In this document: positions 3,875 to 4,026 of the stretch, piece after piece
Layout of the letters: every line of letters begins with the position of its first letter
How positions within the stretch are numbered: position 1 is the first letter of the stretch
Virus record (IMG/VR): IMGVR_UViG_3300044712_000786
Span: 138,705 to 202,704 of that record
Origin: a virus
Lineage: Duplodnaviria > Caudoviricetes
Length of the DNA stretch: 64,000 nucleotides
Reading direction: 5' to 3' (one strand)
The notes under the pieces: generated by a model
Seen by the model: only the letters and a program-made list of their open reading frames with translations
Databases searched by the model: none
What the model was told of the DNA's origin: nothing
Program-made: the position numbers and the translations under genes

Positions 3875-4026
3875 TGAACACAAGCGGGTTTGAACCGCTA
3901 CTACGACTTATTAGCCGTTAAAAACTTTTCATGAGCATGCTACTAGGCTTGCAGAGGCTAGCATGGTCTGCTCTCCACATGTAAACTACTAAGTCTTTAT
4001 AATTGCTACCATTACAATATGTGCTC
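3875..4026 (-). ncRNA. expanded tRNA-Ala-like RNA (152 nt)
   Basis: Acceptor GAGCACA/TGTGTTC-A with G3:U70; D arm with GG; canonical T arm AGCGG-TTCAAAC-CCGCT; ~90 nt multi-stem insert in place of the anticodon arm. Confidence 0.7.

Follow-up and report, generated by a model that had tools for sequence, protein, structure and literature searches.

YrlA-type Y RNAs of bacteria and phages (RF02553) mimic tRNA through a T arm, a D arm and an acceptor-like stem, and RNAs of this YrlA type work with a Ro60-type protein (Chen et al., 2014, PMC4201824). Phage Ro60 proteins, too, bind adjacent Y-like RNAs (PMC12135203, PMC4201824). Species 1 RNA of bacteriophage T4 (rnaC, 139 nt; NC_000866 70908-71046) is a stable small RNA gene of the phage tRNA cluster, in which a canonical T arm and an acceptor-like terminal stem are combined with a large structured insert and no CCA is encoded. 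Finally, tmRNA (Rfam RF00023 and related models) joins an alanine-type acceptor with G3:U70 and A73 to a T arm and has, besides its non-decoding insert, a short frame initiated by GCA. Each of these RNAs resembles E1, a tRNA-shaped element of 152 nt located in the tRNA array of a phage, and each also differs from it. YrlA is circularly permuted, has both ends in its Ro-binding stem and an acceptor stem closed by a loop, and carries a GNCGAA motif, whereas in E1 the topology is that of a tRNA, CGAA is absent and RF02553 gives no match. T4 rnaC has no clear D arm, and a model made from the single E1 sequence (R2) gives it 13.8 bits, no better than the ordinary tRNAs of T4; it is an analogue of E1, not a homologue. 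As for tmRNA, it is about 230-400 nt long with a degenerate D arm and pseudoknots, while E1 has a full D stem of 4-5 bp and no predicted pseudoknot, no complementarity able to form one being seen; in tmRNA, moreover, a long helix runs into a pseudoknot ahead of the resume codon, and the putative tag frame of E1 appears to lack the usual C-terminal signature.

Results

Genomic setting of the element

The window, i.e., the whole 64,000-nt stretch analysed, is the right-hand 64 kb of a phage record of 202.7 kb (~203 kb) that carries direct terminal repeats. Among public runs, the phage was found in rhizosphere metagenomes only: it is present, with zero variants, in four DNA runs, and no RNA run is listed. 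The phage is isolated, its ParB-like protein and other proteins having no close relatives. Indeed, the ParB-like neighbour has 0 relatives in viral_contigs, and the protein database gives distant ones only. The nearest viral relative, G002, has five genes in common with it, at 34-49% identity. Neither AlaRS, a CCA-adding enzyme, SmpB nor RtcB was found when the phage genome was searched for them, so that any maturation or charging of E1 would fall to the host.

Positions 1-12,400 of the window form a dense minus-strand array in which tRNA genes and small ORFs alternate, and E1 occupies a tRNA slot of this array, on the tRNA strand. A PD-(D/E)XK endonuclease (PF11645) is also encoded within the array (7032-7472, minus strand). 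Beyond it, on the same strand, lie a homologue of adenylosuccinate synthetase (17536-18900; PF00709, E = 4e-60), which from its sequence could be of the PurZ type associated with 2-aminoadenine DNA, and, near the Ro60-like gene described below, a protein with weak matches to protein kinase and DnaJ domains (19925-21013). Directly upstream of E1, a 68-aa ORF starts 4 nt past the CCA of tRNA-Trp. No Pfam family matches it, but it is a real conserved gene, with homologues of 57-73% identity on four JGI metagenome contigs.

Architecture of the element

E1 was called by ARAGORN in intron mode and missed in the default and tmRNA modes. As a control, the intron mode gave 0 calls in 10 locally shuffled 203-kb genomes and 1 in the reversed genome. 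The parts of E1 are collected in Table 1; since it lies on the minus strand, RNA position p lies at window coordinate 4027-p.

Table 1. Parts of E1 and related features of the phage (window coordinates unless marked genome).
Feature	Coordinates	Strand	Basis or remark
E1, whole tRNA-shaped element, 152 nt	3875..4026	-	direct reading; ARAGORN intron mode c[3874,4027]; R2 finds sole copy
Acceptor 5' strand GAGCACA, RNA 1-7, with G3	4020..4026	-	perfect pairing to 145-151
D arm, RNA 9-25: stem UUGU/GCAA, loop AAUGGUA, G18 and G19	4002..4018	-	reading and constrained fold
Basal stem 5' strand, 9 bp, RNA 28-36 (predicted)	3991..3999	-	constrained fold, pairs 100-108
Long arm, distal part, RNA 54-94 (predicted)	3933..3973	-	seen in MFE and every constrained fold
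Basal stem 3' strand, RNA 100-108 (predicted)	3919..3927	-	constrained fold
Variable-arm-like hairpin ACGGCU-AAUA-AGUCGU, RNA 109-124 (predicted)	3903..3918	-	MFE, centroid, constrained folds
T arm AGCGG-UUCAAAC-CCGCU, RNA 128-144, canonical loop	3883..3899	-	reading, ARAGORN, constrained fold
Acceptor 3' strand UGUGUUC (145-151) and discriminator A73 (152)	3875..3882	-	U70 = window 3879
3' trailer UUGUUUUUUCUAG, U-rich, without encoded CCA	3862..3874	-	sequence reading
Upstream 68-aa ORF	4031..4237	-	stop codon 4 nt ahead of E1 5' end
Array of four stem + ACAGCAA hairpin RNAs	4322..4565	-	~300 nt upstream of E1; R1 matches
DUF2828 + vWA protein, 491 aa, Ro60 fold	15173..16648	-	Pfam, AlphaFold pLDDT 84.6, Foldseek
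Two more insert-bearing tRNA-like genes, 186-188 nt	genome 85222-85409, 120893-121078 (L006:5221-5409, L008:893-1078)	-	without CCA

The first-pass annotation had described E1 as an alanine-identity tRNA-like RNA, and each sequence feature that it had read was borne out. The acceptor stem is a perfect 7 bp that includes G3:U70 and is followed by A73, the D loop has its GG (G18, G19) and the T loop is the canonical UUCAAAC. All 16 core pairs are intact (7 in the acceptor, 4 in the D stem and 5 in the T stem), and the nucleotides of the tertiary contacts are present as well, i.e., U8, A14, G18, G19, A21, U54, U55, C56, A58 and the pair G53:C61, in addition to A9. D stem and basal stem are joined by a linker that exceeds the tRNA norm in length.

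The annotation had drawn a stem GACUUA (32-37)/UAAGUC (117-122) in place of the anticodon arm. The two strands are complementary and enclose 79 nt; by energy, however, a 9-bp stem formed by 28-36 and 100-108 is preferred. Its 5' strand overlaps GACUUA and its inner 5 bp are the anticodon stem of ARAGORN, while the hairpin 109-124, drawn by ARAGORN as a long variable arm, competes with UAAGUC. With the tRNA core fixed, the fold that contains the 9-bp stem and this hairpin reaches -39.7 kcal/mol, close to the unconstrained minimum of -40.5, and the fold with GACUUA/UAAGUC reaches -36.5, i.e., 3.2 kcal/mol worse. The best fold is thus a type-II-like cloverleaf in which the 9-bp basal stem bears a long irregular arm and the variable-arm hairpin stands apart. 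In the distal part of the long arm, the predicted helices are GAGCA/UGCUC (54-58/90-94) and UGCUAG/CUAGUA (64-69/81-86). The proposed CAUGCUA (62-68)/UAGCAUG (85-91), whose strands are indeed complementary, is an alternative register. Because the stability of the whole fold is unexceptional against shuffles (z = -1.78), these interior helices stay predictions.

The long arm ends in an apical 7-nt loop, UCUGCAA (RNA 72-78, window 3949-3955), in which UGC (RNA 74-76), noted earlier as the alanine anticodon, occupies the anticodon positions, but next to C33. The short frame GCA...UAA pointed out by the annotation is found at RNA 56-109. E1 exists as a single copy, and its insert has no repeat of at least 13 nt beyond chance; on these two grounds, a repeated or mobile element was rejected as the origin of the insert. 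An intrinsic terminator made of the T arm and the U run was also considered and found unconvincing, the U run beginning 12 nt past the hairpin.

Contrast with the other tRNAs of the phage

ARAGORN in its default mode finds 17 tRNAs, located at window 642-12166, at genome 132837-136599 and, for tRNA-Leu(UAA), at genome 85127-85215. G55 is present in the T loop of 15 of the 17 (e.g., UGCAAAU, UGCGAGU), including tRNA-Glu(UUC), where it stands within an odd T loop, AGCGUAA. An encoded CCA is printed for all except tRNA-Arg(ACG), whose print ends before the 3' end (16/17). The G55 that the first-pass annotation had ascribed to the tRNAs around E1 was thus recovered, together with their encoded CCA, as was a separate tRNA-Ala(UGC), at 11353-11424 on the minus strand, although as a weak call. 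The exception is tRNA-Leu(UAA), in which CCA is encoded and the T loop is nonetheless canonical. By contrast, E1 and the two other insert-bearing elements of the genome (Table 1) all lack CCA, and their T loops are of the canonical UUC type. This unusually clean contrast between G55, CCA-bearing decoding tRNAs and canonical-elbow, CCA-less mimics suggests that different machineries read each class.

Insert-bearing tRNA-like genes without CCA are also found in the tRNA array of G002. One of them has a U-rich trailer like that of E1, and none shows sequence similarity to it. Inserts of 32-43 nt, placed at the anticodon loop or within it, were noticed in tRNA genes of the related large phages G002 (L095:6135-6272 and 630-736, both lacking CCA) and G006 (L098:1396-1514), the latter being a tRNA-Tyr(GUA) with CCA in which a hairpin insert of 33 nt separates position 34 from 35. 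Such inserts are too short to be group I introns. Long variable arms of type II style occur in tRNA-Lys(UUU) (6883-6971, 89 nt) and tRNA-Ile(UAU) (11845-11937, 93 nt) of the present phage; the latter is conserved, since it is also found in G002 and G003 (L095:3426-3528; L097:5384-5476).

Search for relatives

No exact match to 24-25-nt pieces of E1 was found in viral_contigs, and BLAST of E1 against the relative G001 gave none. Across 1.14 Mb of related loci, and in the T4 tRNA region, R2 returned generic tRNA parts only, at no more than 31 bits. On the four metagenome contigs, none of the homologues of the 68-aa ORF is followed by an E1-like element. The genome_contigs matches to a 19-mer of the T arm were all in unrelated genes for tRNA-Glu and tRNA-Cys. 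With the 1.2-kb region as query, blastn against cultured phages gave a tRNA-Asp match only. Rfam had no match in the E1 region even at E<=10, the RF00005 tRNA model included, which also failed at the gathering score. E1 is an orphan, with no detectable relative in the viral, metagenome or genome collections searched, and hence neither the insert nor the whole element has covariation or conservation support.

A resemblance was found within the phage. The last 15 nt of E1 and of tRNA-Ala(UGC) are identical at 13 of 15 positions, in register, which 1 of 2000 shuffles reached. An origin of E1 from a tRNA-Ala-like gene is plausible from this likeness, from the UGC of the apical loop and from the rarely seen G3:U70. 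Specific descent from the tRNA-Ala of the phage is only a suggestion, as other tRNAs are nearly as good (19 for the best alternatives and 20 for tRNA-Ala) and the match of the anticodon loop is not significant (554/2000).

A Ro60-fold protein and ACAGCAA RNAs

The phage encodes a DUF2828 protein whose model has the architecture of a TROVE ring followed by a vWA domain, and whose best Foldseek matches are Ro60 structures (1YVR, 2I91, 9KOP, 9L5Y and 2NVO; E 1.7e-8 to 2.7e-6). This protein is a candidate partner of the ACAGCAA RNAs. In 80 viral loci with a DUF2828 gene, ARAGORN in intron mode detected 102 tRNA-shaped RNAs (73 distinct) of 112-134 nt, nearly all on the strand of the gene and no more than about 1.3 kb away. 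They carry a covarying hairpin, H1, in which UC..GA is conserved; an invariant CAGCAA comes 2-4 nt further on. Their stems are 93.9% paired and their covariation score is 0.80, against 0.22 in shuffles; the Rfam tRNA model gives members 40-44 bits, and the family itself is absent from Rfam. In most of them a 7-nt loop of the form A-U-NNN-A-A is kept by an anticodon stem that the insert splits, so that they may be whole tRNAs bearing a protein handle. The insert (hairpin and ACAGCAA, 40-56 nt) interrupts this anticodon stem in its 5' strand, and all 5 bp of the stem can still form, as in L035:9607-9721, L056:243-362 and L022:11768-11880 (among L009 and L015-L093). The loop anticodons include UAC, GCU, UGU, GUU, UCU, GUC and others. 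The split-stem model, which suits most of these RNAs, was tried on E1 and does not suit it.

In the phage studied here, the element at genome 120893-121078 scores 47.9 bits on R1, the covariance model of this family, and has a CAGUAA variant and an AUUACAU loop. The four ACAGCAA hairpins of the array (Table 1) gave sub-threshold matches to RF01414 (27-29 bits), the Dictyostelium Class I RNA model. Such units also lie immediately ahead of the DUF2828 gene of another, unrelated phage locus (L051:9785-9952), and over both sites the sub-threshold scores on this model are 22-29 bits.

Discussion

What the element is likely to be

We favour the reading of E1 as a real and maintained tRNA mimic that does not decode, i.e., a tRNA-shaped scaffold RNA probably derived from a tRNA-Ala-like gene, and we would give this reading about an even chance of being right, judging from the sequence and the modelled folds. 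It is read as maintained because its core is intact and because the contrast in elbow and CCA is class-wide. Besides, E1 directly follows an ORF that is conserved elsewhere, in a tRNA slot, and the insert-bearing design recurs, namely in the G002 array, at the 80 DUF2828 loci and in T4 rnaC.

Part of the original description stands with this reading, i.e., G3:U70, A73 and a large insert that replaces the anticodon arm; the geometry of a decoding tRNA-Ala does not. No 5-bp stem closing a 7-nt loop with U33 exists at the standard distance, and UGC tips an arm of ~80 nt. As modelled, such a geometry cannot decode on the ribosome.

The strongest rival holds that E1 is a decaying pseudogene, a former tRNA-Ala-like gene with an insertion or expansion of the anticodon arm that is merely carried along. 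We consider it rather unlikely, but a serious competitor. Indeed, E1 is an orphan with no homologue, its fold z-score is non-significant, the Rfam tRNA model does not match it, and the tRNA set of the phage is already full, tRNA-Ala(UGC) included. The encoded CCA of the working tRNAs and the U33 of a normal loop, replaced by C in the apical loop, are missing from E1, as would suit decay. However, the acceptor, D and T stem pairs and the elbow contact nucleotides have all been kept, and U55, where the neighbours have G55, argues against a recent duplication of a neighbouring tRNA. Moreover, this genome has two further insert-bearing elements with a canonical elbow and no CCA, and a relative has more such genes, which suggests a maintained class.

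Is the element a divergent Y-like RNA?

E1 could also be a divergent member of the DUF2828-linked RNAs. Its apical hairpin (a helix, 3 nt and CUGCAA) or AACGGCUAAUA would then be a degenerate ACAGCAA handle bound by the Ro60-fold protein of the phage, with the tRNA body serving for processing and stability. The design agrees well: both have a tRNA body, a canonical elbow, a large insert in the anticodon arm and, usually in the family, no encoded CCA, and both belong to phages that encode a Ro60-type protein, here with four perfect ACAGCAA hairpins 300 nt upstream. CUGCAA is one mismatch off the CAGCAA handle and genuine members vary too, with CUGCAA in L050:10766-10878 and ACGGCAA in L058:8901-9023, and R1 places CUCUGCAAGC of E1 on the motif. 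Nevertheless, by our estimate about one third of 100-nt inserts would contain a hexamer one mismatch off the motif by chance alone. E1 scores 28.3 bits on R1, mostly from tRNA parts and with filters off only, against 63-104 for the G005 members, and it is not found with the default filters. RF01414 matches the neighbouring hairpin units and not the hairpin of E1, which has neither an H1 with UC..GA nor an exact CAGCAA, but only the near-misses CUGCAA and AACGGCUAAUA. Finally, E1 is longer than the family (152 nt vs 112-134) and, although on the strand of the DUF2828 gene, lies 11 kb from it, far outside the range of about 1.3 kb. From its sequence, E1 resembles the family in design and fails its defining motif, and we consider its membership unlikely.

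Alanine charging and ribosome rescue

In a reading that builds on the mini-tmRNA proposal of the first-pass annotation, E1 would receive CCA, be charged by AlaRS via G3:U70 and A73, and act on stalled ribosomes or in another Ala-tRNA-dependent process, with GCA...UAA as tag template. The alanine marks are indeed present, and among 42 comparable tRNA-shaped elements just 1 has G:U at this position. The 3' end, close to that of the tRNA-Ala of the phage, and the UGC of the apical loop point in the same direction. AlaRS ignores the anticodon. However, pair 2:71 is A:U and not G:C, CCA is not encoded, and the phage itself encodes neither a CCA-adding enzyme nor AlaRS or SmpB. The tmRNA part of the proposal fares worse. 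ARAGORN in tmRNA mode gave 0 genes in the 14-kb array, while, as a positive control, it found permuted tmRNAs of ~290 nt in three related loci (L022, L025 and L026), and no Rfam tmRNA model matched at E<=10 over window 3400-4500. The putative tag frame has 17 codons, is mostly base-paired in the predicted folds and ends in ...MKSF, not in a hydrophobic Ala-rich signature, and the D stem, the lack of a pseudoknot and the size of 152 nt also speak against it. We regard an alanine-charged mimic or mini-tmRNA as improbable; a mini-tmRNA or a working tRNA, in particular, is very unlikely. The control tmRNA genes (L022:3023-3316, L025:7950-8243 and L026:2500-2792), permuted and in two pieces with the tag ANNIVAFSRQTALV, all lie on phage contigs that encode DUF2828.

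A narrower version would see in E1 an alanine-accepting, non-decoding derivative of tRNA-Ala, given its CCA by the host, charged by AlaRS and presenting its UGC-tipped arm to a non-canonical partner. This partner could be a ribosome rescue or quality control factor, an Ala-tRNA-dependent transferase or the Ro60-fold particle of the phage. We hold this version to be hardly more than a slim chance. If it were true, E1 would be a minimal analogue of the tRNA-like domain of tmRNA that arose independently in a phage.

An intron-bearing tRNA gene

The last reading, that an insert of ~60 nt is removed from E1 to leave a working tRNA, which ARAGORN draws as tRNA-Phe(GAA) with a long variable arm, appears highly improbable. 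The intron mode offers a 5-bp stem, AAGAC/GUUUU, a break at 31/32 would give a loop AUGAAAA of the A-U-NNN-A-A form seen in the DUF2828-linked family, and a cleaner case exists in the relative (G002, 6135-6272). A group I intron of a tRNA gene would be expected in the anticodon loop, with a size of some 200 nt or more and a group I core. The insert of E1, at 60-84 nt, is far below this size and matches no intron family at E<=10; RtcB is not encoded by the phage and, to our knowledge, no bacterial or phage mechanism removes such an insert. Moreover, a tRNA-Phe with G3:U70 and a long variable arm would be mischarged, and the phage already has an ordinary tRNA-Phe(GAA), at 642-716. The related proposal of a novel intron that would leave an ordinary tRNA-Ala is not supported, as no splice choice gives a canonical tRNA-Ala.

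A possible life of the transcript

If E1 is the maintained mimic that we favour, it would be transcribed along with the minus-strand array of tRNAs and small ORFs. Host RNase P would cleave its 5' end, 4 nt past the stop codon of the upstream ORF, and RNase Z or exonucleases would trim the U-rich, CCA-less trailer, to which the host CCA-adding enzyme may append CCA. As deduced from sequence and folding, the product would present a canonical acceptor and D/T elbow, and an irregular arm of ~80 nt beside the variable-arm-like hairpin. The likely role would be to present the long arm, the canonical tRNA body, or both, to a protein. As candidate partners we would rank first the Ro60-fold DUF2828 protein of the phage, which in many phages is flanked by ACAGCAA tRNA-shaped RNAs, then a host enzyme or defence nuclease recognising canonical tRNA elbows, and third AlaRS, via G3:U70.

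Significance

As a single orphan locus, E1 carries moderate weight. If functional, it would represent a distinct design, i.e., a CCA-less, type-II-like cloverleaf that combines alanine marks with an arm of ~80 nt, among the growing set of phage RNAs that use the tRNA body as a scaffold.
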